A stretch of 64,000 nt of DNA, taken from contig CAVTRY010000016.1 in assembly GCA_963737265.1 (NCBI GenBank), positions 32,001 to 96,000 of the forward strand, written 5' to 3'. This DNA is from an uncultured delta proteobacterium (GTDB lineage: Bacteria; Myxococcota_A; Polyangia; Fen-1088). Below, in pieces: positions 27,261 through 61,354 of the stretch. The position numbers and the translations under genes are program-made. The number at the start of each line of letters is the position of its first letter. Positions within the stretch are counted from its first letter, which is position 1. Below the pieces are notes generated by a model. It did not search any database. It was not told where the DNA came from and saw nothing but the letters and a program-made list of their open reading frames with translations.

Positions 27261-28634
27261 TCAGATGGTTCTCGAGAACCGCCGCTCGTCTTGACCGAGG
27301 TACGCGTCGAACGTCATCGCCAGATTGCGAATCAGCAACCGCCCTGTGTCGGTGACGGTGAGCGCGTTGTCGTCGATGGTCACGAGACCATCCGAGGCCG
27401 GGCCAGCGAAGGCCGCGAGCTCCGGGGCGAAATGATCAGCGAAGTCGACGGCGAGGGTCTTCGAGAGAGCCCTGTAGTCCAGCGACAGATCACACATCAG
27501 GCGCATGATCACTTCGCGGCGCAGGATGTCCTCGTCGCTCAAGAACCGCGCTCGACTGACGGGCAGCTGGCCGGAGTCGAGGCGAGCATAGTAGGCGTCG
27601 AGCGTCTTTTCGTTCTGCCGGTAGTGCGTGGTCGTCTGCGAGATCGAAGACATCCCGAAGGCGTAGATATCGACGCCGGCTCGCGTGCTGTAGCCCTGGA
27701 AGTTGCGCTGGAGTGTGTGCGCGCGTTGCGCGACGGCGAGCTCATCGTCTTCACGCGCGAAGTGATCCATCCCGATGTAGACGTAGCCCCGCTCGGTCAG
27801 CGTCTCGATTCCCTGTTTCAGCATGGCCAGCTTTGCTTCGGGGCTCGGCGCCTCCGCCATCGGAAGCAGCTTTTGCGCCGGTTTCAACCGAGGCATGTGG
27901 GCGTAGCTGAACATGGCGAGGCGATCGGGCTGGAGCTCGAGCGCGAGGTCCAGCGTGCGCGCGAAGGAGGCCGGCGTCTGGCGAGGTAGACCGTAGATGA
28001 GGTCGAGGTTGAGCGATCGGTAGCCGGTCTGGCGGATCCACTCCGCCGCGCGATCACTCACCTCCTTCGGTTGAATCCTGTGGATCGCTTGCTGGACGGC
28101 AGAATCGAAGTCCTGGATACCAAAGGAGGCGCGATTGGCGCCGAGCTCGCGGAACGCCTGCACCTGTTCGAGGGTCAGACGCCGTGGATCCAGCTCGACG
28201 CCAATCTCGACTCCCGCTTCCAATGAGAAGTGCGCGCGAAGCATGGCCGCCAGGCGCGCGATCTGTCGGGGCGAAAGAAAATTGGGCGTGCCTCCTCCGA
28301 GGTGGACCTGCACCACGCGGCTGTCCGGGTGCAGCTCCTTCGCCGTCAGAGCGAGCTCCTTGTCGAGGTAGTCGAGGTAAGTATCCGCGCGACCGCGGTC
28401 GCGACCGATGATGGTCGTGCACCCGCAGAACCAACAGAGCGACTCGCAGAACGGCAGATGGAAATAGAGCGACATCGGTCGCGCGCTCCGACTGCTCGCG
28501 CGAAGGTCCTGTAACAGCGCGTCGCGAGAAAAGTGCTCCGTGAATTCCAGCGCGGTCGGATACGAGGTGTAGCGCGGTCCCGGCACGTCGTACTTGCGGA
28601 TCAGATCGAGGTCAACGTGAAGACGGGCGGTCAT
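27261..28634 (-). CDS. hemN: Oxygen-independent coproporphyrinogen III oxidase (radical SAM)
   Basis: GPRYTSYPTA, CESLCWFC, GGGTP, IGMDHFA and RNFQGY motifs. Confidence 0.96.
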   Translation of the reverse strand: MTARLHVDLDLIRKYDVPGPRYTSYPTALEFTEHFSRDALLQDLRASSRSARPMSLYFHLPFCESLCWFCGCTTIIGRDRGRADTYLDYLDKELALTAKELHPDSRVVQVHLGGGTPNFLSPRQIARLAAMLRAHFSLEAGVEIGVELDPRRLTLEQVQAFRELGANRASFGIQDFDSAVQQAIHRIQPKEVSDRAAEWIRQTGYRSLNLDLIYGLPRQTPASFARTLDLALELQPDRLAMFSYAHMPRLKPAQKLLPMAEAPSPEAKLAMLKQGIETLTERGYVYIGMDHFAREDDELAVAQRAHTLQRNFQGYSTRAGVDIYAFGMSSISQTTTHYRQNEKTLDAYYARLDSGQLPVSRARFLSDEDILRREVIMRLMCDLSLDYRALSKTLAVDFADHFAPELAAFAGPASDGLVTIDDNALTVTDTGRLLIRNLAMTFDAYLGQDERRFSRTI

Positions 28635-28676: not shown

Positions 28677-28692
28677 TGCAAGAGAGGAGCCA
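28677..28692 (-). promoter_or_regulatory. Putative sigma-54 promoter of hemN
   Basis: Minus strand reads TGG-CTCCTCTCTT-GCA. Confidence 0.6.
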
Positions 28693-34147: not shown

Positions 34148-34177
34148 CAAATCGGCACAAATCGGCACAAATCGGCA
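34148..34177. repeat. 10-bp tandem repeat, 3 copies, in a divergent intergenic region
   Basis: caaatcggca three times perfect. Confidence 0.9.
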
Positions 34178-34305
34178 ATCGATGGTCTGTGCGCGCTCGA
34201 GCTAGGGGGTTGACGAGATCCCGCCGGCTTCGTCAGACTGAGGCAAACCGACTGGGATCCGTGTCTAGGGGGGAGCGGGTTCCGAGGCCAAAAAGGCGAA
34301 ATGGA

Positions 34306-35976
34306 ATGACCCCTCTCAGTCTGCGCCAACGACCGCGGGTGCGCCTCGCGCCGCCCGACTTCGCGAATCCTCCCTCGCTCGACCCGCCGAGCGAAGGCGC
34401 GCGCCGTTCCCCTCGGCCGGGCGCCGCCCGTGAGCGGATTCTCCTGGTGGAAGACGACCGGAGCATCCGGGCCGCGCTGCAGGGGATTCTGGAGGACGAA
34501 GGTTACGCCGTCACGACGGCCGAGAACGGACGTCAGGCCCTGGAGCGGCTTCGATCGAGCCCGGTGCCCGAGCTCATCGTCCTCGATCTTCGAATGCCCG
34601 TCATGGACGGCTGGGAGTTCCGCGCCGCGCAGAAGCAGGACCCCGCGCTGGCGCGGATTCCGGTGCTGGCCGTGTCGGCCGACGGGAGCGCCAAGGCTGC
34701 GGCGATCGACGCGCAAGCCTACCTGCGCAAGCCGCTCGATACCGACGCGCTTCTCAACGCGATCGGCCGGATCCTGGGAGAGGCCGATCGGCAAAATCTG
34801 TTGCGGCGGCTCGAAGAGGCGGAGCGTTTTGCCGCGCTCGGCAGGCTGGCCGCGAGCGTCGGCCACGAGATCAACAACCCGCTCGCTTATGTCTCGATGA
34901 ATGTCGATCTCGCGGCCGCCCAGCTGGATCGGTTCCTCGGGCCAGACGTCAGGGGTGCCGTCTCCTCGGCCGGCCTGGCCAACCTTCCCGGCCTCTTCCG
35001 TGAATGTCGCGTGGGGCTCGACCGCATCCGCGACGTGGTCAAGGATCTGCAGCGGCTCTCCCGCCAGTCCGAAGTGACACGCGAAACGTTCTCCCTCAAT
35101 GATCTCCTGGACGAGTCGCTGGCGATGGCGAGAAATCAGGTCGCGCATCGTGCCCGGGTGCGCAAGCTCTACGGGGAAGTTCACGCGGTCGTCGGGGATC
35201 GCTCCGCCCTCGGGCAGGTTCTGCTCAACCTCATCCTGAACGCCGCCCAGGCGCTCCCCGAGGGGCAGGCCGACACGAACGAGATCACACTGCGGACCTC
35301 CACGGAGGGAGCGACGGTCACCGTCGAGGTCAGCGACACGGGCGCGGGAATCCCGCCCCAGGTGCTGCCGCACATCTTCGATCCCTTCTTCACGACGAAG
35401 CCAATCGGTGAGGGGACTGGGCTGGGGCTGGCCGTCTCTTGCCGCATCGTCGCCGACCACGGAGGTCGAATCGATGTCGAGAGCGACGTCGGTCGCGGCT
35501 CGGTCTTCCGGGTCATTCTTCCTCTCGTGCGACCCGAGGTCCCACAGACGCCCCGAGACGAGGACCAGGGCGCGCGAACCGAACGGGCGATCTCGCGCGC
35601 GCGGATCCTGGTGATCGACGACCAGCCGACCTTCGGCCGAACGATCTCGCGGGCGTTGACCGAGCACGACGTCACGGTGGTGGCAAGGGCGGTCGAGGCG
35701 TTCGCGCTGCTGACGGCAGGGGAGGAGTTTGACGTCATCCTCTGCGACCTCTTGATGCCCGAAATGGGGGGACGCGGCGTATTCGAGCGAATCAAGGCCG
35801 ACTGGCCGCATCTGGCCCCCCGAACGATCTTCATGACCGGCGGCGCGTTCACGCCCGAGTCGCGCCAGTTCCTCGAACGATCGCAGCAGACGGTTCTCAC
35901 CAAGCCTTTCTCTTTGGACGTGCTGCGGGCCGCTGTCTACGCGTTGATGGAAGACCGCACCGACGGTCCCAATTGA
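34306..35976 (+). CDS. Hybrid kinase REC-HisKA-HATPase-REC without a sensor domain
   Basis: LLVEDD...LDLRMP; GHEINNPL; LNLILNAAQA; FFTTKP.GEGTGLGL; second REC (CDLLMP...TKP). Start approximate. Confidence 0.92.
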   Translation: MTPLSLRQRPRVRLAPPDFANPPSLDPPSEGARRSPRPGAARERILLVEDDRSIRAALQGILEDEGYAVTTAENGRQALERLRSSPVPELIVLDLRMPVMDGWEFRAAQKQDPALARIPVLAVSADGSAKAAAIDAQAYLRKPLDTDALLNAIGRILGEADRQNLLRRLEEAERFAALGRLAASVGHEINNPLAYVSMNVDLAAAQLDRFLGPDVRGAVSSAGLANLPGLFRECRVGLDRIRDVVKDLQRLSRQSEVTRETFSLNDLLDESLAMARNQVAHRARVRKLYGEVHAVVGDRSALGQVLLNLILNAAQALPEGQADTNEITLRTSTEGATVTVEVSDTGAGIPPQVLPHIFDPFFTTKPIGEGTGLGLAVSCRIVADHGGRIDVESDVGRGSVFRVILPLVRPEVPQTPRDEDQGARTERAISRARILVIDDQPTFGRTISRALTEHDVTVVARAVEAFALLTAGEEFDVILCDLLMPEMGGRGVFERIKADWPHLAPRTIFMTGGAFTPESRQFLERSQQTVLTKPFSLDVLRAAVYALMEDRTDGPN

Positions 35977-37451
35977 TGAAGCGCGAGGCTTGGTCCGGGC
36001 TGGCGCGAGATCTGGATTGGGACTTCACCTACGTTCGGCAGGAAGAGGTCTTTCCGACCGCGGTGAGCGGGCGCCCCTGGCTTCCGCACGAAGAGTGGAA
36101 AGGGTGGGAGGAGCCCTACAAGACGACCTACGCAGACTACGTCGCCAACCAGAGCGAGAAGGAGCGCGCCCTCGGGGCTGTGCGCGCGGCGCTCGGTCGG
36201 ATCTCGGACTTCAAGCGGCTGCCCCGCACCTGGTTGAGCGCGCTCAAGCTCCACAATGCGACGCTGCCGCTGGCGGAGTTCGCGGCGGTGATTGGCAACC
36301 TGCGCGCCGCGCGCTTCGGCCGCACCGCCGCCTGGCGCACGGCGGCCAGCTTCGGGGCGCTCGACGAGCTTCGTCACACGCAGATTCCCCTTCTGCTCAT
36401 GCATCCGCTGGTCGCCTGGGACGAGCAGTTCGACTGGACGCATCGATTTTTTCACACCGACAACTGGGTGGCGATCGCGGCCCGCCACCTCACCGACGAG
36501 CTCCTGCTGGGGGCCGATCCGATCGAGTTCGCCGTGGGGACCAACTTCGTGTTCGAGACCGGCTTCACCAACCTGCAGTTCATCGGCCTGTCGGCGGTGG
36601 CGCACGACGTGGGGGATCGCCTGTTCGAGACCCTGCTCGGCAGCATTCAGAGCGACGAGGCGCGCCATGCCCAGATCGGCGGGCCGGTGTTGGCCAAGTT
36701 GGTCGAGAAGGATCCCGAGCGGGCCCAGCGCCTCGTCGACAAATGGTTCTGGCGGAGCTGGCAGCTGTTCGCGATCGTGACCGGCTTCGCGATGGACTAC
36801 CTCACGCCGCTCGCCGAGCGCGGAGCGTCGTTCAAGGAGTTCATGCAGGAGTGGGTGGTCGACCAATTCCTGCAAACGCTGCGCGCGTACGGGCTCGAGC
36901 GCCCCTGGTACTGGGAGACGTTCCTCGGCGCCCTCGAGCACTACCACCACATGGTCTACGCGAGCGCGTACACCTATCGGGCGTCGGTCTGGTTCGACCT
37001 CGTCGTGCCTGGGCCCGACGAGCGCGCCTGGCTGCGCGGCAAATATCCCGCCTCCTGGCCCTCGCTGGAGCCGGTCTGGGAGCAGATCACCGCGCGCTGG
37101 CGCGAGGCTGATCCAGGGAACGACTTCGCGGTGCACGGCGCCGCCATCGTCGGTTTTTGCGAGCTGTGTCAGCTGGTCCTTTGCGGCGGGACCCCCGCGC
37201 GGAACAGCGCGGTCGTCGCCGAGCATGGGGGGCGCCGGCGGATCTTCTGCTCGGAGCCCTGCCGCTGGATCTTCGAGAGCGAGCCCGAGCGCTACGCGGG
37301 GCACGCCGGGATCGTGCAACGGGTCCTCGCCGGGAAGGCGCCCGCCAACATCCTGGCGCTCTTGCGACAGACCTTCGGCCTCACCTACGACAGCTGGGGC
37401 AAGGACGCCTTCGGCGGCGAGTATCCCTGGCTGGTGCGGGAGCGACCATGA
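35976..37451 (+). CDS. tmoA: Soluble di-iron monooxygenase alpha subunit, toluene-4-monooxygenase TmoA-like
   Basis: W.LAR.LDW..YV N-terminus; iron ligands LAEF, DELRH, FETGFTN, DEARH; C..CQ and YHS-like FCSE.C.WIF C-terminus. Confidence 0.93.
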   Translation: MKREAWSGLARDLDWDFTYVRQEEVFPTAVSGRPWLPHEEWKGWEEPYKTTYADYVANQSEKERALGAVRAALGRISDFKRLPRTWLSALKLHNATLPLAEFAAVIGNLRAARFGRTAAWRTAASFGALDELRHTQIPLLLMHPLVAWDEQFDWTHRFFHTDNWVAIAARHLTDELLLGADPIEFAVGTNFVFETGFTNLQFIGLSAVAHDVGDRLFETLLGSIQSDEARHAQIGGPVLAKLVEKDPERAQRLVDKWFWRSWQLFAIVTGFAMDYLTPLAERGASFKEFMQEWVVDQFLQTLRAYGLERPWYWETFLGALEHYHHMVYASAYTYRASVWFDLVVPGPDERAWLRGKYPASWPSLEPVWEQITARWREADPGNDFAVHGAAIVGFCELCQLVLCGGTPARNSAVVAEHGGRRRIFCSEPCRWIFESEPERYAGHAGIVQRVLAGKAPANILALLRQTFGLTYDSWGKDAFGGEYPWLVRERP

Positions 37452-37702
37452 CGGTGATGCCGCTCTACGGATTCGTGCAGGGGGACACGATGGGCGTCGT
37501 GGTGCTGGGACGGCTCGACGCCCCCGTCGCCCAGCTGGGCGCCGACCTCCTGCGCGCGGTGGGGGTGCGGATCAACCGCCAGGGGCCCTACCAGCTGCGG
37601 GCTGGCGCGCGCCGGCTCGATCCCGATGCCACCTTGCGGACAGAGGCGCTCGCGCCGCTCGACCGGATCGATCTCGTTTGGGACCAGGGAGCGTCCGCAT
37701 GA
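37448..37702 (+). CDS. tmoB: Monooxygenase gamma subunit TmoB-like
   Basis: PLYGFVQGD...V.VR...PLDRIDL; ATGA overlaps at both ends. Confidence 0.85.
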   Translation: MTVMPLYGFVQGDTMGVVVLGRLDAPVAQLGADLLRAVGVRINRQGPYQLRAGARRLDPDATLRTEALAPLDRIDLVWDQGASA

Positions 37703-38010
37703 CCTTCAAGTCTGTTCTCCGGCAAGACGACCTCTGGATCGGCGAGATGACCGGAGTGAAGGTCGAGGGGTGCCCGGTCCTTCTGGTCAACGTCGAGGGG
37801 ACGGTGTGCGCCTACGAAGATCGCTGTCGCCACCTGGCCCGCCCCCTCAGCGAGGGAAAGCTCACCGGCAATCGGCTGGTCTGCGCGGCCCACGCCTGGG
37901 AGTACGACGCTTGCACGGGCCGCGGCATCAACCCCGACAACATGGCGCTCCGCCGCTACCCGGTCCGGATCGCCGACGGCGAAATTCTGGTGGATCTCGA
38001 TGCTGTCTGA
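37699..38010 (+). CDS. tmoC: Rieske [2Fe-2S] ferredoxin TmoC-like
   Basis: DDLW.GEM, CRH...C.AH.W and TG.GINP motifs. Confidence 0.93.
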   Translation: MTFKSVLRQDDLWIGEMTGVKVEGCPVLLVNVEGTVCAYEDRCRHLARPLSEGKLTGNRLVCAAHAWEYDACTGRGINPDNMALRRYPVRIADGEILVDLDAV

Positions 38011-38299
38011 GCGTCTGGCCCCGAGCGAGGTCGGGCCGGTGCTGCTCTGCGGCCGCGTCTCGGACGCGATCGTCGCCGCCATCCGGCAGCAGAACGCCGG
38101 CGTGCGCCTGTCGCAGCGAGGCTCCTACCTGCGCGTCTCCGTCTCCACGCGGTGCGAGGTCCGCGCCGACGCCGTCGCCACGCTGCTGGGCGAGCCGTTC
38201 CGGATCCCGCAGGACCTCGAACGGGTCATGCCTTCGTTTCGCGGTCGGCTGTTCCTGTCGGAAGAGATGGCCGCCTGGGAGGCGAGCGCGCTGCCATGA
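38000..38299 (+). CDS. tmoD: Monooxygenase effector protein, MmoB/DmpM (TmoD-like)
   Basis: VGPVL, GSYLRV, LG.PF.IP.DLE..MPSF.GR motifs. Confidence 0.9.
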   Translation: MLSERLAPSEVGPVLLCGRVSDAIVAAIRQQNAGVRLSQRGSYLRVSVSTRCEVRADAVATLLGEPFRIPQDLERVMPSFRGRLFLSEEMAAWEASALP

Positions 38300-39246
38300 A
38301 ACCTGCGCGCAAGACCTACTGGCACCTCGGTGCCGGGCGACGGTTGCCGTCGGACTACGAGATCGCCACGTCGCGGCTCCTCTATTACGTCGACCGCGGT
38401 GGATTCGCTGTCGATCTGCCGACCTCGGACTTCTACCGGCGCCATCAGACGGGGTCGTTGCTCGTCTCCGATCGCTGGGACGAGCTTTGCGATCCGCGCG
38501 CCACGACCTACACGAAGTATGTCGACATCGAACGAGAGCGGGAAGCCTATGTAGGCCGGCTGCTGACCACCATCGAGGAGTCGGACTACGATCGGGGGCT
38601 CCCCGGCGCCTGGCTCGGGACCCTGGGTGGCGCGCTCTCTCCGCTCCGTTTCCTCTGTCACGGCCTGCAGATGGTGGCGGCCTACATCGGACAGATGGCC
38701 CCGAGCGGACGCATCGCCGTCGCGGCGCTGTTCCAGTGCGGCGACGAGATCCGGCGCATTCAACGCTTCGCCTACCGGCTGGCGCTGCTCGCGCGGTGCA
38801 GCCCCGACCTCGGGACGGCAGGACGCGGCCTCTGGCAGTCCGATCCCCGCTGGCAGCCGTTGCGACGGGCGATCGAGCGACTGCTGGTCGCCTACGATTG
38901 GGGCGAGGCGTTCGTCGCCCTCAATGTCTGCCTCAAGCCGATGATCGACGACCTCTTCCTGGTTCAGTTGGCCGAGCTTGCGGAGCGCTCGCGCGACCAC
39001 CTGGACGCGCAGATCCTCCGCTCGCTGTTCGAGGACTCCGAGTGGCACGTCGCCTGGACGGAAGCGCTGCTGGCGCACGCCTACGCCGACCGGTCTGACA
39101 ACCGCGCCGTGGTCGCGGGTTGGATTGATGCTTGGGCGCCGACCGTCGAGGCGGCCGCCGTCGCCGCCGCCGCGCTCTTGGGGACGGAACGGCAATCGAC
39201 GGCCGCCGTCATCGGGCGACAAAAAGAGGGGGGTGCGTTTGGCTGA
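38296..39246 (+). CDS. tmoE: Monooxygenase beta subunit TmoE-like
   Basis: KTY.HL...RR.PS.YEI.T..L, DP..TTY..Y, HGLQM and LL.AYDWGE.F motifs. Confidence 0.92.
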   Translation: MKPARKTYWHLGAGRRLPSDYEIATSRLLYYVDRGGFAVDLPTSDFYRRHQTGSLLVSDRWDELCDPRATTYTKYVDIEREREAYVGRLLTTIEESDYDRGLPGAWLGTLGGALSPLRFLCHGLQMVAAYIGQMAPSGRIAVAALFQCGDEIRRIQRFAYRLALLARCSPDLGTAGRGLWQSDPRWQPLRRAIERLLVAYDWGEAFVALNVCLKPMIDDLFLVQLAELAERSRDHLDAQILRSLFEDSEWHVAWTEALLAHAYADRSDNRAVVAGWIDAWAPTVEAAAVAAAALLGTERQSTAAVIGRQKEGGAFG

Positions 39247-40732
39247 CGGAGGGACGTTGCCGACGGCGTGGCGGGCGACCGCGTTCGAGCAGCTCGCCGA
39301 CGAGAGCTTGGACGGCGTCTGGGCCTGCGACCGCGAGCTCCGCTGTCTCTACTGGAACGCGACCATGGAGCGGCTCTCCGCCCTGCCGGCGGCGCGCGTC
39401 CTCGGCTATGGAATCAACGAGGTTCTCTCGCGGCTCGGCGACCGCGACGAGACGTCCTCGATCCGCGCCGTGCTCGAGGGAACGGCGGGCGTGTCGTCCG
39501 AGCGACGTGCCGCCACCCGCGAGGAGGCCCCGGGGACGTTCCGGACGCACTATCTGCCGATTCGTTCGGAGGTCGGGGAGGTGGTGGGCGTCGCCGCCAT
39601 GGTCCGAGACGTCACCGAAGAGGACCTGATCCGCCAGGCCCTGCGCGAGACCGACGCACGCTTCCGAAACATGGCGGACGCCTCGCCGGTGCTGCTCTGG
39701 ATGTCGAGATCCGACGGGCTCTGCACCTTCTTCAACCAAACGTGGCTGGCGTTTACCGGACGGACGATGGAAGAGGAATGGGGCGTCGGCTGGGCCGAGA
39801 ACGTCCACTTCGAGGACCTCGAGTCCTGCCTGGAGACCTACCGGGCGGCCTTCAACCAGCGGCGGCTGTTCGAGATGGAGTACCGCCTTCGCCGAAAGGA
39901 CGGTGCCTACCGCTGGATCCTCGACCGAGGGACGCCCCGCTACGTGCCGGACGGCCAGTTCGCGGGATACATCGGCTCGTGCGTCGACATCACGGAGCGC
40001 CGCGAGCTGGAGTCCGAGCTGCGCGGCGCCATCGAGGCGCGCGACGATTTTCTCTCCGTCGCCTCGCACGAGCTCGGGACGCCGCTCACGGCCCTCAAGC
40101 TGCACGTCGAACAGCTCCAGCGCACGCTCGGCCCCGCGCCTGCGGGCCCGGCCGGTCCGCGGTCGCTGGAGGGACGCGTCGAATCCATCGCCCAAGATGT
40201 CCAGCGCCTGGGGCATCTGGTGGAGACGCTGCTCGACAGCACGCGCCTGGCCGTCGGCGCCTGGAAGCCGCAAATAGAGCGCGTCGATCTCGGACAGCTG
40301 GTCGAACAGATTGTCGGAGAGCTCGCGCCCGTGGCGGAGGCGGCTGGATGCGCGGTGAAGCTTCGGAGCCAGGCCGGTCTGCTCGGACACTGGGATCGCG
40401 GCAGCCTGGAACAGACAGTGACCAACGTCCTCGGCAACGCTTTCAAGTTCGGCGCCGGCGCACCGGTCGAGATCGAGCTCGAGGGGGACGGCGCCTCGGC
40501 GACGGCGCGCATCCGCGACCACGGCGTCGGCCTTCCGGTGGAGCAGCACGAGGTGATCTTTCAGCGGTTCGGCCGGGCACCACACACGCGCGGTTACGGG
40601 GGCTTGGGTTTGGGGCTCTGGATCGCCCGTCAGTTTCTGGAGGCGATGGGCGGATCGATTCGCGTCAGGAGCACGGCCGGCGCCGGTGCGACGTTCGAGA
40701 TCGCGTTGCGCTGTGAGCCGGAGCGCTCATAG
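39233..40732 (+). CDS. Cytosolic PAS-PAS histidine kinase
   Basis: Two PAS domains; ASHELGTPL; NVLGNAFKF; GGLGLGL. GTG/TTG start (39233/39239) overlaps the tmoE stop. Confidence 0.9.
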   Translation: MRLADGGTLPTAWRATAFEQLADESLDGVWACDRELRCLYWNATMERLSALPAARVLGYGINEVLSRLGDRDETSSIRAVLEGTAGVSSERRAATREEAPGTFRTHYLPIRSEVGEVVGVAAMVRDVTEEDLIRQALRETDARFRNMADASPVLLWMSRSDGLCTFFNQTWLAFTGRTMEEEWGVGWAENVHFEDLESCLETYRAAFNQRRLFEMEYRLRRKDGAYRWILDRGTPRYVPDGQFAGYIGSCVDITERRELESELRGAIEARDDFLSVASHELGTPLTALKLHVEQLQRTLGPAPAGPAGPRSLEGRVESIAQDVQRLGHLVETLLDSTRLAVGAWKPQIERVDLGQLVEQIVGELAPVAEAAGCAVKLRSQAGLLGHWDRGSLEQTVTNVLGNAFKFGAGAPVEIELEGDGASATARIRDHGVGLPVEQHEVIFQRFGRAPHTRGYGGLGLGLWIARQFLEAMGGSIRVRSTAGAGATFEIALRCEPERS

Positions 40733-40782: not shown

Positions 40783-40816
40783 GGTTTCGAAACCGCTTGG
40801 TGCAAGTTTCGAAACT
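40783..40816. promoter_or_regulatory. Tandem palindromic operator-like sites
   Basis: GGTTTCGAAACC (40783) and AGTTTCGAAACT (40805), 22 bp apart. Confidence 0.55.
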
Positions 40817-40930: not shown

Positions 40931-42094
40931 GTGGACGGGGCGATCGGGGCAAACGAACAGCCAACCGTCTTGGTTGTCGATGACGAGCCCTCCATCGCTC
41001 GAGCGACCGAGAGGGTCCTCACCAAAGAGGGCTACAGGGTCGCGATTGCGGCCGGGGGACTGCAGGCGATCGACCTGGCTCGTTCGACGAGGTTCGACGC
41101 GATCGTCAGCGATCTCGCCATGCCGGACATGGACGGGCGGGCCTTGCTGCGCGCCGTCCGAGCGTCGGATCTGGATGTCCCCTTCGTCTTTTTGACCGGC
41201 AGCCCGGACCTTCAAAGCGCGATCGAGGCGATCGAGTACGGGGCCTTCCGCTACCTCATCAAACCCGTTCCGATAGACGAGCTTGCCGACGTCGTGAACC
41301 GAGCGGTCCGATGGCATCGTTTCGCCGTCGCTCGGCGAGAGGCTGCGCCCGAGATCCAGGGTCGGCCGATCGGCGATCGTGCGGGTCTGGAGGTGCGCTT
41401 CGCGGCCGCCCTCGAGCGGCTCTGGATGGCCACGCAGCCGATCGTCTCGTGCGGTCAGCGATCCGTGCTGGCCTACGAGACGCTGGTTCGTACCGACGAG
41501 CCGACGTTCCGAGGCCCACCCGACCTGCTCGATGCCGCGGAGAGGCTGGGGAGGACCGCGGAGCTCGGGCGACGGATTCGTCGGTTGGTCGCCGACCTCA
41601 TACCGGCAGCGCCCCCGTCGGCGTTGATATTCGTCAATCTGCATCCCGCCGACCTCGAAGATGACGAGCTGTCTGCGAGGGATGGGGTACTCACTCCCTT
41701 TGCGAGCCGGGTGGTCCTGGAGATCACCGAACGGGCCGCCCTCGACGGCATCCGTGGTCTTCGTGATCGGGTGGAGCATCTTCGGGCGCTCGGGTTTCGG
41801 ATCGCCATCGATGATCTCGGCGCGGGCTACGCCGGGCTGTCGAGCTGTGCCGCTCTGGAACCGGACGTCATCAAGGCGGACATGTCGCTCGTGCGCGGGA
41901 TCGAGACCTCGCCGATTCGACAAAAATTGATGCGCGCGATCGTCGCGCTGTCGAACGACCTCGGCGTGCAGCTGATCGCCGAAGGGGTCGAAACAGCCGC
42001 GGAGCAGGACTGCGTCGCCGCGCTCGGCGCGCACGCCGTGCAGGGCTACTTCTTCGCGAGACCAGGTCGTGGGTTTCCTTCGATTGCAACCTGA
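40931..42094 (+). CDS. REC-EAL c-di-GMP phosphodiesterase
   Basis: REC domain followed by YETLVR, FVNL, LEITE, DDLGAGY, AEGVET and QGY motifs. Confidence 0.92.
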   Translation: MDGAIGANEQPTVLVVDDEPSIARATERVLTKEGYRVAIAAGGLQAIDLARSTRFDAIVSDLAMPDMDGRALLRAVRASDLDVPFVFLTGSPDLQSAIEAIEYGAFRYLIKPVPIDELADVVNRAVRWHRFAVARREAAPEIQGRPIGDRAGLEVRFAAALERLWMATQPIVSCGQRSVLAYETLVRTDEPTFRGPPDLLDAAERLGRTAELGRRIRRLVADLIPAAPPSALIFVNLHPADLEDDELSARDGVLTPFASRVVLEITERAALDGIRGLRDRVEHLRALGFRIAIDDLGAGYAGLSSCAALEPDVIKADMSLVRGIETSPIRQKLMRAIVALSNDLGVQLIAEGVETAAEQDCVAALGAHAVQGYFFARPGRGFPSIAT

Positions 42095-42566: not shown

Positions 42567-43958
42567 CTAGGTCTCGAAGTCGCGGGCACGAATCCCGAGG
42601 CTTTTCATCTTCACGTGCAGCGTCTTGAAATCCGTGCTGAGGCTGCGCGCGGCCTCGCTCTTGTTGCCTTGCGCTGCCCTCAGCGCCTCGCAGATCACTT
42701 GACGTTCCGCTTCGCGGGCCGCTCGATCGGCGACCTCCTTGAGCGTTTGGCCGGGCAATCTCGTCGCGATCGCTGCGGAGGCTGTTTCGACCACACCGAG
42801 ACATCTCTGGATCGTTGCGCGCTCCAGGAGCAAATCTTTTGATTCGAGAACCGCCTGCCGGATCACGTTGCGAAGCTCGCGGACGTTGCCTGGCCAGGAA
42901 TGACGCTTGAGGAAGTCCAGAGCTTCGGGCGCGATCCCCTGCATCGGATGGCGCAACTCGACGCTCACCTCGCGCATGAATCGCTCGGCGAGGTGAGCGA
43001 TGTCTTCGGGCCGATCCCGCAGCGGGGGAAGATGGATCGTGTACTGGGCGAGCCGGAAATACAGGTCTGAGCGAAACTGTCCTTCCTTGACGCGGGCCTG
43101 CAGATCGCTGTTCGTGGCCGCGATGAACCGCACGTCAATGGACGTTGGCTGGCTGGCTCCAACCACCTGGAGCTTCCGCGACTCGAGCACCCGGAGCAGC
43201 TTGGCCTGGAGACCGAGGGGGAGGTTGCCGATCTCGTCGAGAAACAGGGTGCCGCTTTCGGCGAGGTGAAAGTGTCCGGTCCTCCGCCGGTCAGCGCCCG
43301 TGAAGGCGCCCTTTTCATGTCCGAACAATTCGGATTCGAGAAGCGCCTCCGGGATGGCGCCGCAGTCGAGAGCGATGAACGGCTTCGTACGCCGTTCGCT
43401 TTCGCGGTGGAGCGCGCTGGCCACCAAGTCCTTGCCCGTTCCGGTCTCTCCCAGAACCAACACGGAGAAGTTCGTGGCGGCGACGGTCGTCACCTGTTCA
43501 ATGATTCGTCCGACGATCGGGCTCGGACCCATCAGCGTGTCCAGTCCCCCGGCGCCGGTCCGGCGCCGGAGCTCTTCGACCTCGCTCAAAAGGGCGCGCG
43601 CTTGCAGAGCACGCCCGACCACCAGACTGATCTCGGTTGAGTCGAATGGCTTGGTGAGATAGTCGACCGCTCCGAGTTGCATCGCGCGCACGGCCGTTTT
43701 GACGTCGTCACAGCCGGTGAGCATGACCACCGGAAGGCCGGGCTTGGCGACCTTCAGTCGCTCGAGCACCTGGATGCCGTCGAGCCTGGGAAGCTCGAGG
43801 TCCACGATGACGATGTCGGGTTCGCGGGCGGTCACCAGGGCAAGCCCGCCCTCACCGTCCTCGGCGGTCAACACCTCAAAACCCTCCTTGACGAAGATCG
43901 CCGTCAACAGCCGAAGAATGGCGGGATCATCGTCGACCGCCAGTAGCCGCCGACCCAT
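42567..43958 (-). CDS. Sigma-54-dependent response regulator (NtrC family)
   Basis: REC, GETGTGKD, GAFTGA, WPGNVREL, Fis-type HTH. Confidence 0.95.
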   Translation of the reverse strand: MGRRLLAVDDDPAILRLLTAIFVKEGFEVLTAEDGEGGLALVTAREPDIVIVDLELPRLDGIQVLERLKVAKPGLPVVMLTGCDDVKTAVRAMQLGAVDYLTKPFDSTEISLVVGRALQARALLSEVEELRRRTGAGGLDTLMGPSPIVGRIIEQVTTVAATNFSVLVLGETGTGKDLVASALHRESERRTKPFIALDCGAIPEALLESELFGHEKGAFTGADRRRTGHFHLAESGTLFLDEIGNLPLGLQAKLLRVLESRKLQVVGASQPTSIDVRFIAATNSDLQARVKEGQFRSDLYFRLAQYTIHLPPLRDRPEDIAHLAERFMREVSVELRHPMQGIAPEALDFLKRHSWPGNVRELRNVIRQAVLESKDLLLERATIQRCLGVVETASAAIATRLPGQTLKEVADRAAREAERQVICEALRAAQGNKSEAARSLSTDFKTLHVKMKSLGIRARDFET

Positions 43959-44134
43959 GTCAACCTCGCCGACCACCGTAACAGACCGACGCGACCATCA
44001 CCAGCGATCGTCGGTCCAGACTGGTCTGGATCGAGGCGAGATCACCAGGACTGTGGCACGGGCTCCAGAGAGCGCGCGCCGACAAATGGCCACCGGCACG
44101 CACAATCCCCGCACTTCGGTCTGGTCTTTGGTGT

Positions 44135-44150
44135 CGGCACGCCGTTCGCA
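44135..44150 (+). promoter_or_regulatory. Putative sigma-54 promoter of cytochrome c peroxidase
   Basis: cGG-CACGCCGTTC-GCA. Confidence 0.55.
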
Positions 44151-44163
44151 GTGGGCGAGAGGT

Positions 44164-45186
44164 ATGAGGGCTTGGTTCAAGAAGAGGTGGTGGGTTGGTG
44201 CGTACGCGCTCGCGCTCGCGCCATCGTTGGGATGTGCGGCAGGTCCGGCTCGAGCTCCGGCCCCGCCCAAGTACGTCGACGATGTCCCGCAGATGGTGGC
44301 GGATAGAGTTTCCCCCCCGCAGGACCCGAACCGGGTCGCGCTGGGACGGCTGCTGTTTCACGACCCTCGGCTTTCGAAGGGTCGCCAGGTCTCTTGCAAC
44401 AGCTGTCACGTCCTGACGAGGTTTGGCATCGACGGCCAGACGATCTCCACCGTTTGGGGGGCCCAGGCCGGCAGGCGCAATGTCCCGAGCATCTTCAACG
44501 CTGCCACGCACCTCGCCCAGTTCTGGGACGGTCGTGCTCTCACCGTGGAGGCGCAGGCTGGCGAGGCGATGACGAACCCGGTCGAGATGGCCATGCCCAA
44601 CGAGGAGGCAGTCGTCGACGCGATCTCCCGGGTACCCCGATACGTCGAGATGTTTCAGACGGCGTTTCCCGATGACAACCAGCCCATCTCAGTCCGAAAC
44701 GTCGGTGAGGCCATCGGCGCGTTCGAACGCGGCCTCGCGACCAAATCACGCTGGGACAAGTTCATAGCGGGCGACCACGCGGTGCTCACCTCGCAGGAGA
44801 AGCGAGGATTGAACGTGTTCATGCAACGCGGATGCATCGTGTGCCATGCGGGACCCCAGGTCGGCGGGACCAGCTTACAGAAGGTCGGCGCGGTGTTCCC
44901 TTGGCCGAACCAGACGGACAAGGGCCGCCTCGAAGTCACCCACTTCGAACCGGATCGAATGGTGTTCAAGGTGCCCTCCCTGAAGAACATCGCCGAGACC
45001 GGGCCGTACTTCCACGACGGTTCTACCTCGAGCCTCGAAGTGGCCATCAAGCTGATGGCGTTTCACCAGCTCGGGCTCGAGATCAGCGAGGAAGAGGTCT
45101 ACGCAATTGCCGATTGGATGCGTTCGATGACCGGGGAACCGGATCCGGACTATATCGCGGCTCCTGAGCTCCCCCCGGGAGGTTAG
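44164..45186 (+). CDS. Di-heme cytochrome c peroxidase (lipoprotein)
   Basis: Lipobox SLGC; CNSCH and CIVCH; QFWDGRA, FKVPSL.NI and PYFHDG motifs. Confidence 0.94.
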   Translation: MRAWFKKRWWVGAYALALAPSLGCAAGPARAPAPPKYVDDVPQMVADRVSPPQDPNRVALGRLLFHDPRLSKGRQVSCNSCHVLTRFGIDGQTISTVWGAQAGRRNVPSIFNAATHLAQFWDGRALTVEAQAGEAMTNPVEMAMPNEEAVVDAISRVPRYVEMFQTAFPDDNQPISVRNVGEAIGAFERGLATKSRWDKFIAGDHAVLTSQEKRGLNVFMQRGCIVCHAGPQVGGTSLQKVGAVFPWPNQTDKGRLEVTHFEPDRMVFKVPSLKNIAETGPYFHDGSTSSLEVAIKLMAFHQLGLEISEEEVYAIADWMRSMTGEPDPDYIAAPELPPGG

Positions 45187-45245
45187 AGAGAGACAGTCGT
45201 TTGGGCTTGGCGAGGCGCGCGGCCGGACCGGTGTACACTCGACCT

Positions 45246-46625
45246 GTGGATACCTTGATCGTCGACGACGATCCCGCTGTTCGAGCGGTCTTGCGCAAGC
45301 TCCTGACCCGACGGGGCGACAATGTCCTCGAAGCGGAGGATGGGAGGCAAGCGATCGATCAGCTCGGCGCCCGGGCGGTCGATCTGGTCATCACGGACCT
45401 GCTCATGCCTCGTGCGAACGGGCTCGAGGTTTTGCGCCACGTGCGCGAAAGAAGACCGCAGATCCCCGTGATCATGCTGACCGCTGAAGGATCCATCCGG
45501 GACTGCGTCGAAGCCATGCGGGCCGGCGCATTCAATTTCCTGACCAAGCCGTTCCACACTGACGACCTCGAGGAGATCATCCGCCAGGCAACCTGCGCTC
45601 GGGGGCTACGACCCGCATCGGGTGCTGGCGCCTCGGGCCCGGCAACACCCGCCGAGCCTGGGCAGCCGCAGATCGCGCTGGTCGGCGAATCAAATGCTCT
45701 ACGGGCCGTCATCGACATGGTCGAACGGATCGCGGGAAGCGGTTCCACCGTGCTCATCACCGGAGAAAGCGGGACAGGCAAGGAGGTGGTCGCGCGGCTG
45801 CTTCACTATTCCTCGCCGCGGGTGGGGCAACCGTTCGTCGCCGTGAACTGCGGGGCTATTCCCGAAACCCTGATCGAAAGCGAGCTCTTCGGCCACGTCA
45901 AGGGGGCCTTCACCGGAGCCGTCGACTCGCGCCCGGGGCGGTTCGCCCAGGCCGACGGTGGAACGTTGTTTCTCGACGAGATCGGCGAGCTGGCGTTGCC
46001 CCTTCAGGTGCGCCTTCTGCGCGTCTTGCAGGAGCGGGTGATCACCCCAGTGGGTGACTCACGGGTCCGCGCGGTCGACGTCCGGATCATCGCCGCCACC
46101 AACCGCGACCTCGAGGGCATGGTCAAGGAGGGGAAATTTCGGCAGGACCTCTTCTATCGGCTGGAGGTCTTGCCCGTCAGGTTACCCGCTCTTCGCGAAC
46201 GTCGCGAAGACATCCCGCTTCTGGCCGCACATTTCCTCGAGTCGACGAACCAACGCTTGGGCCGCCAGATCGCCATATCCGAGGGCGCGCTGGCAGTCAT
46301 GCGGCTCTATGACTGGCCCGGCAACGTGCGCGAAATGGAAAATCTGTTCGAGCGTCTCGTCGTTCTTTCACGTGGAGGCGCGATCAGTGCCTCCGACCTG
46401 CCAGAGCGCATGCGCTCTGGCCCGGCTGCGGCACAGATCGCCGACGCTTCGGCGTCTCTTGCCCTCGGCGCCTTCAACCTCGTCGCGTCAATGGCGGCCA
46501 TCGAAAGTACGCTGATCGAACAGGCGATGCGGCAAGCGAGCGGCAATAAGACCCGTGCGGCGGAGCTTCTCGGCATCAGTCGGACGACCCTCCTCGACAA
46601 GTTGAAGCGGGGGAATGGCGATTGA
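45246..46625 (+). CDS. Sigma-54-dependent response regulator (NtrC family)
   Basis: [39 protein letters not shown]. Confidence 0.95.
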
Positions 46626-55665: not shown

Positions 55666-56541
55666 TTATTTGGCAATGACCGCTGATGCCCTGGCGAAGG
55701 CGAGGAGGCGCTCCCCCAGCCGGGCTGGGTCGTCGAGGTGCGGGGAGTGACCGAACCCCGCCGGCTCCTCGACGATCGCGTGCTGGGGCAGATGGCGTCG
55801 GAAGTAGGCGAGCGCGCTCGGCGGGAGAAGGCGTTCCGACTGGCCCCACAAGAGGAGAATCGGCATCTGCAGTGCGCTCAGGCTGTCGGGCATGGGCAGG
55901 TTGTCGAGCGTCGCAGAGTCCACGACGTCGCGGACGGCAGCGCCCTTCATGATGTCCTGCAGTCCAGGTGCGAGCGCTGCCAGGTACCAAGGGGCACGGT
56001 GGTAGAGGCGACCCAGCAGGCGCCGGGCGTCGGCGGCAGAATCGATTCTGAACGCGTCGAGGAGCTCGTCCCATTCGCTCGGCGAGGTCCGGGCCCCGGC
56101 GGGGGAGATGAGGGCGAGCGCCACCAGCCGCCCGGGACGTTCCACCGCGTACCGGAGGGCGAGGGCGCCACCGAGGGAGCTCCCCACCAGGATCATCGGC
56201 TCGGAGACCAGACTGTCGAGCAGCTCCGACACGGCACCAAACAACCGCTCGGGGGTCAGCCGGCCGGAGGGAGTCTCGCTGAACCCGTGCCCCGGCAGAT
56301 CAGGCGCGACCAAGCGACCCGCCTCGGGAAGCATGCGGATGAGAAGCGGTCCGAAAGCCGAGGCCGTCGAGCCGAGCCCGTGCAACAGGACGACCGTCGG
56401 TAGCGCGGCCGGTCCCCGCGCTTCGTACACCTGGAGCGCACCGGCTTCGGTCGGTGCCGTGAGGCTCCTGAAGCCGCGGCGGTTCAGCACGAAGCGGGCT
56501 CCGTGCTGGACCAGCGAAAATAGACTCAGTTTCCTACCCAT
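55666..56541 (-). CDS. Alpha/beta hydrolase (lipase/esterase-like)
   Basis: LLHGLG, DLPGHG, GSSLGG nucleophile elbow and GHSPH motifs. Confidence 0.9.
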   Translation of the reverse strand: MGRKLSLFSLVQHGARFVLNRRGFRSLTAPTEAGALQVYEARGPAALPTVVLLHGLGSTASAFGPLLIRMLPEAGRLVAPDLPGHGFSETPSGRLTPERLFGAVSELLDSLVSEPMILVGSSLGGALALRYAVERPGRLVALALISPAGARTSPSEWDELLDAFRIDSAADARRLLGRLYHRAPWYLAALAPGLQDIMKGAAVRDVVDSATLDNLPMPDSLSALQMPILLLWGQSERLLPPSALAYFRRHLPQHAIVEEPAGFGHSPHLDDPARLGERLLAFARASAVIAK

Positions 56542-59826: not shown

Positions 59827-61354
59827 GTGAACGATCCAGAGGTGGTGGTGATTGGCTCTGGGCCAAACGGTCTCTGTGCCGCCAACAGCATGGCCCGCCG
59901 GGGCTTTCGGGTGCTGGTGCTCGAAGCGAACCCGCGCCGGGCCGGCGGCGCGCTCGGAACCGAGGAGCTGACGCTGCCCGGGTTCCGGCACGATGTCGGG
60001 GCGGGATTCTTTCCGTTCGCCGCCAGCAGCCCGGCCTTCATCGAGCTGGATCTGCCGGGTGTCGGCGTCGACTGGCGCCGCGCCACCTACGAGAGCTGCC
60101 ATCCCGCGCTCGACGGCAGCGTGGCTGTCATTGGCCGCGCCGACGCGACCGGGACGGCGCCGTTCGGCAGTCCGCGCGACGCCCGGGCGTTCGCGGATTC
60201 TGGCGCGCTTTCACGCCGGCATCGAACGCGAGCTGCTGGCGGTGCTCCTGGGCCCGTTTCCGTCGCTCCGGCCCCTGCTGCGCCTGGGCCTCGGCAACTT
60301 GTTGAAGGTCGCGCGCCTGCTCGCTGGCAGCCCGCGCCGGCTGGCGTGTCGCCTGTTCGAGAGCGAGGCGGCGCGGCGCGTGTTGCCCGGCCTTGGGATG
60401 CACGTCGACGTCGGGCCCGACGACACGCTGGGCGCGGCACTCGGCTACGTGCTCGCCCTGACCGCGACCACCGGGGGCTTCGCCGTCCCCGCCGGAGGCG
60501 CGCAGCGGGTGGTCGAGGCGATGACGGCGCGACTCGCCGAGCGCGGCGGTACGGTGCGCCTCGGCGCGCGCGTGGCCCGGATCATCGTTCGCGGCAGGCG
60601 CGCGTGCGCTGTCCAGCTCGACGACGGCACCGAGATCGCGGCGCCGCGGGCGATCCTGGCGGACACCTCGGCGGCGGCGCTGCTGCTGTCCATGCTGGAC
60701 CCGCGCGACGTGCCGTCATGGGTGCGCGCGTTCATGTCCCGGTTTCCGCAGGGGTGGGGCACCTTCAAGGTCGACTGGGCGCTCTCGGGTGCGGTTCCCT
60801 GGCAGGTCGAGGCCGCCAGCGGCAGCGCGGTGGTGCATGCGGGCGAGAGCCTCGACGATCTGGCGCGGTTCACCCGCGAAGTCCGGGCGGGCCGTCTCCC
60901 GGAGCGGCCCTATCTGGTGATCGGTCAGCAAGCGCTCGCGGATCCGAGCCGCGCGCCGCCGGGGAAACAGACACTCTACACGTATACGCACGTGCCCTCG
61001 GTCGTCGAGGAGGGCTGGGCCAACGCGCGCGAGCGGTTCGCCGACGCAATCGAGCGGCGCATCGAGGAGCTGGCGCCGGGATTTCGCGCCCGGATTCTGG
61101 GACGGCATCTGACGGCACCACCGGAGCTCGAAGCCGGCAACGCCAACCTGGTGGGTGGGGACCTCGGCGGCGGTTCGAATGCCTGGCACAGGCAGCTGCT
61201 GTTTCGACCGCTGTTTCCTTACTTTCGCTACCGCATGCCGGTCGCGGGCCTCTACCTCTGCTCGAGCTATGCGCACCCGGGCGCAGGCGTTCACGGGATG
61301 TGTGGCGCCAACGCGGCGGACATCGCGGCGCGCGATGCGGAACGCCGCCGCTAG
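59827..61354 (+). pseudogene. Phytoene-dehydrogenase-family FAD oxidoreductase with a +1 frameshift
   Basis: VVIGSGPNGL N-terminus in one frame; N.NL.GGDL.GG and LYLCSS..HPG.GVHGM.G..AA C-terminus in another. Removing one T at 60198-60199 gives FADLARFH. Confidence 0.85.

Follow-up and report, generated by a model that had tools for sequence, protein, structure and literature searches.

A monooxygenase operon of the toluene/alkene type with a PAS kinase gene in the place of its reductase gene recurs among soil bacteria

Gene organization of the locus

The 64-kb stretch of DNA analysed here, referred to as the window, comes from an uncultured delta proteobacterium and carries a cluster resembling the tmoABCDE genes of the four-component toluene and alkene monooxygenases, joined at either end to a histidine kinase gene and devoid of the reductase gene tmoF. 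Based on Pfam matches and a reading of the gene junctions, these genes form one plus-strand chain of seven overlapping genes: a REC-kinase-REC gene, tmoA-, tmoB-, tmoC-, tmoD- and tmoE-like genes, and a PAS-PAS kinase gene. The source genome is a 6.55-Mb assembly in 25 contigs, with a completeness of 99.5% and a contamination of 7.6%. The chain is composed as follows.

34306..35976, + strand: HK1, hybrid kinase REC-HisKA-HATPase_c-REC (Pfam Response_reg twice, HisKA (weak), HATPase_c)
35976..37451, + strand: tmoA-like hydroxylase alpha subunit with the diiron centre and a C-terminal Cys4/YHS site (Pfam Phenol_Hydrox 5e-63, and YHS)
37448..37702, + strand: tmoB-like small (gamma) subunit (Pfam TmoB at 24.5 bits, cut-off 25; size and position fit)
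37699..38010, + strand: tmoC-like Rieske [2Fe-2S] ferredoxin (Pfam Rieske 1e-17; CRH...CAAH in the translation)
38000..38299, + strand: tmoD-like effector of the MmoB/DmpM type (Pfam MmoB_DmpM 4e-16)
38296..39246, + strand: tmoE-like hydroxylase beta subunit (Pfam Phenol_Hydrox 2e-55)
39239 (TTG start) or 39233 (GTG start)..40732, + strand: HK2, kinase PAS-PAS-HisKA-HATPase_c, in the tmoF slot (Pfam PAS twice, HisKA, HATPase_c)
39644..40024, + strand: PAS2, the second PAS domain of HK2 (54-91% identity across related loci)

The initial annotation had described a chain of overlapping genes, and the sequence bears this out at every junction: the HK1 stop and the tmoA start share TGATG, the A/B, B/C and D/E junctions read ATGA, tmoC and tmoD overlap by 11 nt, and tmoE and HK2 overlap by 8 nt (TTG start) or 14 nt (GTG start). 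A purine-rich ribosome-binding stretch, AAGAGGGGGG, lies just 5' of the HK2 start. In most loci of the main clade defined below, tblastn places a match to the tmoB-like gene at the corresponding position. HisKA and HATPase_c were matched in both kinases, the H-boxes SHELGTPL and GHEINNPL are readable in the two translations, and H277 is near-invariant among the kinases downstream of tmoE. Judged from these comparisons, the association of tmo and kinase genes is not a product of chance, since the same tmo gene order followed by a kinase after tmoE recurs in dozens of other genomes.

Relatives of the cluster and their phylogeny

A protein search returned at least 120 matches, mostly metagenomic, with 67-90% identity among those listed, and a scan of one genome per species brought 284 relatives, of which the best 80 of 284 loci were analysed. 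These 80 loci split into a main clade of 66 (58-90% identical) and a sister clade of 14 (47-51%), all of the latter from Actinomycetota. By their labels, the 66 main-clade loci belong to Myxococcota (37), "delta proteobacteria" (6), unspecified proteobacteria (4), Acidobacteria (4) and Bdellovibrio-like bacteria (3), the remaining ones coming, one or two each, from eight other groups. The canonical plasmid-borne enzymes are 38-42% identical to the window TmoA. In a quick maximum-likelihood tree of the alpha subunit (84 rows, three partial rows excluded), the three sets each fell on one side of a branch with Shimodaira-Hasegawa-like approximate likelihood-ratio test (SH-aLRT) values of 100, 99 and 100; as the sets had been drawn by identity band, the tree shows that they are distinct and is no independent test of their composition. 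The cluster is rare, being found in two of 401 genomes sampled from the window's phylum, its own genome included.

A PAS kinase in the place of the reductase gene

Of the 66 main-clade loci, 58 contain the second PAS domain of HK2 (54-91% identity), and each of the eight that lack it is cut off by a contig edge before the cluster is complete or right where it ends. In 54 of the 58 loci with the domain, PAS2 is encoded on the tmoE strand, no more than 1500 nt past the tmoE stop; the exceptions are L042, where PAS2 follows tmoE within a split cluster (D-E-kinase, then A-B-C), L045, where it lies upstream, and L067 and L068, where it is upstream and divergent. The kinase in the tmoF slot, proposed from the window alone, is thus a trait of the clade. 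By the start codons picked in this analysis, 20 of 57 kinases overlap tmoE by 4 nt. Among the genes taken after tmoE, HATPase_c was detected in 49/58 and PAS in 48/58; at least four of the nine without HATPase_c are wrong-frame picks (L061, L062, L076 and L086), at which tblastn gives kinase-like matches. The type of transmitter varies (HisKA in 38, HisKA_2 in 11 and HWE in 6, n = 58).

PAS2 itself is strongly conserved. Thirty-three of its 127 positions are invariant, including Cys162 and His190, and conservation among the copies reaches 92% at Cys197 and 97% at Cys248. Its mean pairwise identity (65%) is close to that of the catalytic alpha subunit (66%), the beta subunit reaching 46%, and it is the sole input domain of the kinase in at least ten loci. 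The window genome holds no PAS2 paralog above 27% identity, and a comparison of coordinates placed the best PAS2 match inside the tmo locus in all 43 carrier genomes. In a tree of 99 PAS2-type domains, 58 of the 59 linked copies grouped on one side of a branch (SH-aLRT 83) together with none of the 40 unlinked ones. The TmoA and PAS2 identity matrices are correlated (r 0.55, matched by 0 of 2000 permutations), as are those of TmoA and TmoE (r 0.72), shared species history possibly inflating both values. A strict confinement of PAS2 to tmo loci was rejected, as relatives of up to 57% identity occur in 34 of 399 enzyme-free genomes; the separate clade of the linked copies survives.

The upstream kinase follows another pattern. 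A same-strand kinase core occurs within 2.6 kb upstream in 13 of the 55 loci with enough upstream DNA, and is adjacent in nine of them. Upstream orthologs of HK1 (50-76% identical) are found only in L015-L018, L035 and L036; HK1-like hybrid kinases occur in about 16 loci overall, about 10 of which do not have them upstream, and they often lie 3' of the PAS kinase. By this measure of neighbourhood, the upstream kinase is outside the conserved core. A kinase at each end, as proposed in the initial annotation, is therefore not a feature of the system: from the recurrent kinase-tmoABCDE-kinase order lacking tmoF, the downstream kinase recurred in the main clade and the lack of a reductase in all 80 loci, and the upstream kinase fell away. 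The opposite scenario, in which close homologs would carry tmoF and catabolic genes and the kinase would be peculiar to this genome, was not what the main-clade loci displayed.

Conservation of the hydroxylase

The cluster encodes the components tested for a four-component soluble diiron monooxygenase (SDIMO) of the toluene monooxygenase (TMO) type, namely a diiron alpha subunit, beta and gamma subunits, a Rieske ferredoxin and an MmoB/DmpM effector; a dedicated NADH oxidoreductase (Fer2, FAD_binding_6 and NAD_binding_1) as sixth gene was not found. The alpha subunit matches T4moA (3dhg_A) at E 2e-115 and all six iron ligands align, window residues E101, E131, H134, E194, E228 and H231 corresponding to T4moA E104, E134, H137, E197, E231 and H234 in what we take to be the accepted T4moA numbering (likewise for T201, N202 and Q228). 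In an alignment of 84 alpha subunits, the iron ligands and the equivalents of T201, N202 and Q228 are invariant in 64/64 members of the window clade and 14/14 of the sister clade, and the four cysteines of the C-terminal Cys4 site are kept in both. Q141 of T4moA is replaced by proline in all 78 relatives of the two clades, and position 192 is threonine in 59/64 window-clade members, as in the Xanthobacter alkene monooxygenase. The hydroxylase thus looks catalytically intact, the invariance of its iron ligands and catalytic residues favouring an active monooxygenase over a sensor shell that has degenerated. Some metagenomic relatives (P0026, P0037 and P0096) are TmoA-TmoB fusions of about 595 aa (PF06234 and PF02332).

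Absence of linked reductase and catabolic genes

Forty-nine open reading frames (ORFs) were called and scanned with Pfam in the window, nine of which have no Pfam match. None of the 49 contains a FAD_binding_6, NAD_binding_1, Fer2, ring-cleavage dioxygenase or epoxide/alcohol pathway domain, in agreement with the earlier claim that the 64 kb hold neither a reductase nor a catabolic gene. The nearest candidates are an Amino_oxidase flavoprotein (59993-61354) and a plain alpha/beta hydrolase (55666-56541, - strand).

At the scale of the genome, PF02332 matches this cluster alone and no reductase of the TmoF type was found, as the initial annotation had left to be checked. PF00970 has one match, a 240-aa FNR-like protein without a 2Fe-2S domain, and PF00175 adds one CysJ-like and two PyrK-like proteins; none of the six Fer2 matches lies at a FAD_binding_6 gene. 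A tblastn search with XamoF, the Xanthobacter reductase, retrieved only the FNR part of the 240-aa protein (27% identity). Another contig encodes a 552-aa fusion of Rieske, Pyr_redox_2 and Reductase_C domains (G000:C23:269093-270751; L098:4594-6252, - strand), which is a possible electron donor in trans. Its ferredoxin reductase part is of the glutathione-reductase type. Full-length orthologs of this Rieske-FAD fusion occur in 17 of 43 carrier genomes, none near the tmo cluster, and its candidacy as the universal missing reductase was rejected on these grounds.

The same holds for the relatives. XamoF gave no tblastn match at E 0.01 in the 80 related loci, and the motif screen, as a positive control, picks up XamoF in its own locus. 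Among the 43 carrier genomes, which are metagenome-assembled genomes (MAGs) of unestablished completeness, 27 had no XamoF match at 1e-12 and about eight had a Fer2-FNR match over the full length, in each case outside the tmo locus. The main-clade flanks (277 ORFs from about 60 loci, tallied for the 25 commonest families with eight long ORFs excluded) contained no recurring catabolic or pathway gene. They are heterogeneous and rich in signalling domains: the 139 downstream ORFs include 26 with REC, 15 with HATPase and five with GGDEF, and the 138 upstream ORFs include 20 with REC and 18 with HATPase. Linked sigma-54 activators number two downstream and four upstream. In comparison, the sixth gene encodes the reductase in four of five canonical loci, and genes for aldehyde dehydrogenase, meta-cleavage or epoxide hydrolase lie next to it. 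The fifth, L096 from a symbiotic plasmid of Paraburkholderia phenoliruptrix, has a tmoABCDE cluster of about 40% identity and no reductase within 6 kb; an unannotated 2.3-kb stretch follows its tmoE.

Sister clade and substrate hints

The sister clade (L077-L083 and L088-L094, e.g., L080:9210-10028) has the order tmoA(B)CDE, includes Mycolicibacterium iranicum, and shows no reductase within about 10 kb. A MEDS protein gene lies directly 5' of tmoA and overlaps its start in 12 of the 14 loci, the other two having no upstream DNA, and PucR-type regulators are nearby in the three loci examined for them. One actinobacterial locus has an epoxide hydrolase gene downstream. The MEDS/CdaR pair of the ethene monooxygenase (EtnR2/EtnR1) controls the enzyme and responds to ethylene oxide, not to ethylene (PMC11197473).

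In the deltaproteobacterial MAG locus L045, a hybrid kinase of the ethylene-receptor type, ETR1_N-HisKA-HATPase-REC-REC-Hpt (L045:13686-16127), stands right after tmoE, the PAS2 protein being encoded upstream of tmoA. Its ETR1_N match has an E value of 3e-37, and a C-G-x-x-H motif is present. Altogether, these observations give a weak indication that the substrates are small alkenes and their epoxides are the products.

Flanking DNA and neighbouring genes

Two further features flank the chain.

34210..34239, + strand: sigma-70-like promoter candidate TTGACG-N18-CAGACT, 5' of HK1 (sequence reading)
40931..42094, + strand: REC-EAL protein, 198 nt 3' of HK2 (Pfam Response_reg and EAL)

The promoter candidate is absent from the list returned by a consensus promoter scan; its TTGACG...TCGTCAGA(A/C)T block is present in the aligned upstream DNA of L016 and L017, and partly in that of L015. 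Three tandem copies of CAAATCGGCA lie 5' of HK1 at 34148-34177; a role as an operator was rejected, since the four closest relatives do not share the repeat. Between the HK2 and REC-EAL genes, two palindromes with the core GTTTCGAAAC (40783-40794 and 40805-40816, 22 nt apart) may be a pair of operators. A scan for terminators gave six against 4.2 expected, none convincing within the chain or after HK2.

The translation of the REC-EAL gene contains ETL, DDLGAG and related motifs, which we take to be apparently intact active-site motifs, and an ortholog (67% identical) sits upstream of the tmo cluster in L015. This protein is a possible output of the module as a cyclic di-GMP (c-di-GMP) phosphodiesterase, and its membership in the system is provisional.

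A sigma-54 scan (TGGCAC-N5-TTGCW, up to two mismatches) gave 21 matches in the window against 18.8 expected, with none near the operon start or before the REC-EAL gene. The idea that the NtrC-type activators nearby drive the operon was dropped. The best match, with one mismatch, is at 28677-28692 (- strand), just 5' of a gene for a HemN-like radical SAM protein (27261-28634, - strand). At 42567-46625, 2-6 kb 3' of the operon, a CCP_MauG (di-haem cytochrome c peroxidase) gene lies between two genes for NtrC-type sigma-54 activators, and no link of this region to the operon was found.

Possible function of the enzyme-kinase module

Taken together, these neighbourhoods show an enzyme that appears to have lost its linked reductase and to move between lineages in company with a dedicated PAS sensor. 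Since the reductase-less, kinase-joined arrangement is kept by many, mostly myxobacterial, soil bacteria, it suggests that the enzyme serves signalling and not nutrition. We tentatively favour, as quite possibly correct, an oxidise-and-sense module in which the dedicated PAS kinase reports the substrate or product of the enzyme into a phosphorelay. One transcript would encode the hydroxylase (alpha, beta and gamma), the Rieske ferredoxin, the effector and the dedicated cytoplasmic PAS kinase. Electrons would reach the enzyme from a donor encoded elsewhere, and a small hydrophobic molecule, most likely an alkene or an aromatic compound, would be oxidised. The conserved PAS2 would let the kinase detect this reaction, its likeliest ligand being the oxidised product or the substrate, and phosphate would then flow through a relay, made up in this genome of HK1 and probably the REC-EAL protein, that alters behaviour or gene expression and does not feed catabolism. 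What the data show directly is the chain of genes and their domains, the preserved catalytic residues, the linkage and joint divergence of enzyme and kinase across the clade, and the missing reductase and catabolic neighbours; we infer which ligand is bound, which donor supplies electrons, which way the signal runs and what it controls.

Several observations weigh against an oxidise-and-sense module. An ordinary substrate-responsive regulator would show the same linkage of kinase and oxygenase. PAS2 belongs to a wider PAS_3 subfamily, the relatives in the 34 of 399 phylum-sample genomes without the enzyme being 36-57% identical to it; the neighbourhoods of four unlinked relatives contain no oxygenase, and in one of them the domain stands behind a CHASE sensor and ahead of the kinase, a position in which its role may be limited to signal transmission. 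Given such relatives in oxygenase-free kinases, one of them behind CHASE, PAS2 need not bind the product of the enzyme. A reductase acting in trans is possible, the genome encoding the Rieske-FAD fusion and the FNR-like protein as candidate donors, and T4MO is reported to be partly active without tmoF in Escherichia coli. Outputs through c-di-GMP are not universal, given the five GGDEF domains among the 139 downstream ORFs. Finally, almost every carrier is a MAG whose binning label is uncertain, and the gene calls in the loci are rough, having been made with a script based on GC content at third codon positions together with tblastn.

The alternative that fares best is an ordinary catabolic, detoxifying or co-metabolic monooxygenase, supplied by a reductase in trans, with HK2 as a substrate-responsive switch in the manner of TodS/TmoS for toluene or EtnR1/EtnR2 for ethene. 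The fully conserved catalytic residues, the presence of donors in the genome (the Rieske-FAD fusion, full-length in 17/43 carriers, and the FNR-like protein) and the equally reductase-less canonical-type locus L096 agree with it, and regulators beside SDIMO operons are the rule in the accounts consulted in part here (PMC11197473; for TodS, PMC4861429). On the other hand, 277 flanking ORFs gave no recurring pathway gene, compared with reductase and catabolic genes in four of five canonical loci, and 26 of 43 carriers lack the candidate trans reductase. DNA-binding regulators are seldom linked (sigma-54 activators in 2/139 downstream and 4/138 upstream ORFs), the operon start has no sigma-54 promoter match in its vicinity, and the kinase gene is within the operon, overlapping tmoE, and not a separate regulatory unit. 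We regard this explanation as possible, though on the unlikely side.

A trigger enzyme or redox sensor is a more doubtful proposal. Here the kinase would dock on the hydroxylase or the Rieske ferredoxin in place of the reductase and read redox state or turnover (O2, peroxide or substrate flux) without a diffusible ligand. The kinase gene does stand exactly in the reductase slot, and stays beside tmoE even in the split locus L042; PAS2, the sole input domain in at least ten loci, is as conserved as the catalytic subunit (65% vs 66%, with beta at 46%), and its three conserved cysteines (100%, 92% and 97%) and invariant histidine might bind a metal or serve as redox-active thiols. Yet unlinked PAS2 relatives occur in kinases with no oxygenase nearby, the intact effector and ferredoxin point to normal catalysis, and many of the invariant PAS2 residues are, in what we take to be the PAS_3 consensus, general hallmarks of that fold. 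Direct docking is improbable on this balance.

The least probable alternative, and a quite unlikely one, is that the enzyme makes or breaks an endogenous or interspecies signal by hydroxylating or epoxidising a plant or prey volatile (e.g., ethylene, isoprene or indole), creating the ligand or removing the signal while the kinase follows its level: the ethylene-receptor-type kinase after tmoE in L045, Thr192 in 59/64 members, the EtnR2-like MEDS sensors of the sister clade, the single actinobacterial epoxide hydrolase and the labels of the carriers (Myxococcota 37/66, Bdellovibrio-like 3/66) would fit, but none of these hints draws on more than a few loci or a single residue, and the proposal overlaps the oxidise-and-sense module, from which it differs only by naming the molecule.

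SDIMOs have been treated as catabolic or biocatalytic enzymes consisting of a hydroxylase, a coupling protein and a reductase, and here a large clade spanning several phyla seems to have dropped the linked reductase and to carry a dedicated sensor domain, a sister clade doing likewise with a different sensor. Returning to the oxidise-and-sense module, a role in perception would, if true, be a new bacterial way to sense inert volatiles, by converting them first, and many "toluene monooxygenase" annotations in soil metagenomes could not be counted as pollutant-degradation potential. A bolder form of the docking proposal, in which the hydroxylase itself is the receptor, the docked kinase reads its turnover or redox state, and volatile hydrocarbons (e.g., ethylene, isoprene or prey indole) or O2 are perceived through the enzyme reaction, strikes us as rather improbable; if true, it would be the first sensory receptor derived from a soluble diiron monooxygenase, and a mobile module among mostly predatory soil bacteria. 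Whatever the function, the cluster raises the biochemical question of what reduces the Rieske ferredoxin.

Comparison with known systems

The four-component toluene and alkene monooxygenases (T4MO TmoABCDEF, ToMO, XamoABCDEF and IsoABCDEF) have the same five proteins encoded in the same order, i.e., alpha, gamma, Rieske ferredoxin, effector and beta. The window clade is separate from them (SH-aLRT 100), being 38-42% identical and lacking both the sixth gene and the flanking catabolic genes, and differs from T4MO, as does the sister clade, by the replacement of Q141 with proline. This class corresponds to "group 1 SDIMO/TMO" of a 2025 review, which, in the sections considered here, describes the TMO operon as six genes including the reductase, classes subgroups A and B of TMO as uncharacterised, and does not contain the term "histidine kinase" (PMC11825192). 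A 2026 survey of MAGs, again as far as the cited part goes, counts full tmoABCDEF operons only (PMC13603553). No description of a reductase-less TMO-type operon with an embedded kinase was found in the literature covered, which excludes Table S3 of PMC11825192.

TodS/TodT and TmoS/TmoT likewise associate a PAS-containing histidine kinase genetically with a toluene-oxidising enzyme system. TodS and TmoS are large double kinases (PAS-HK-REC-PAS-HK), encoded in separate regulatory operons and acting with a DNA-binding partner. HK2, in contrast, is a single kinase of 497 residues encoded inside the enzyme operon, and its PAS-PAS-HisKA-HATPase_c architecture lacks the second kinase and the central receiver. 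The PAS region of HK2 retrieved neither a TodS nor an MmoS chain among PDB sequences at E 1e-3. The PAS domain of TodS binds the hydrocarbon itself, according to the portion of the work cited (PMC4861429).

The soluble methane monooxygenase (sMMO) locus also has a tandem-PAS sensor kinase beside an SDIMO operon, in the form of MmoS/MmoQ. Unlike the window cluster, the sMMO system retains a reductase of its own, MmoC, and the MmoS gene lies outside the reductase slot of the enzyme operon. PAS-A of MmoS binds FAD, and MmoS has been proposed to sense redox state.

EtnABCD, the actinobacterial ethene monooxygenase, has its own reductase and catabolic genes. Its regulators EtnR1/EtnR2 differ from HK2 in that MEDS is not a PAS fold and the output is a transcription factor, not a kinase; no MEDS or PucR gene was detected among the 49 ORFs of the window. 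They resemble the MEDS and PucR-type regulators of the sister clade, and provide a precedent for the sensing of a monooxygenase product.

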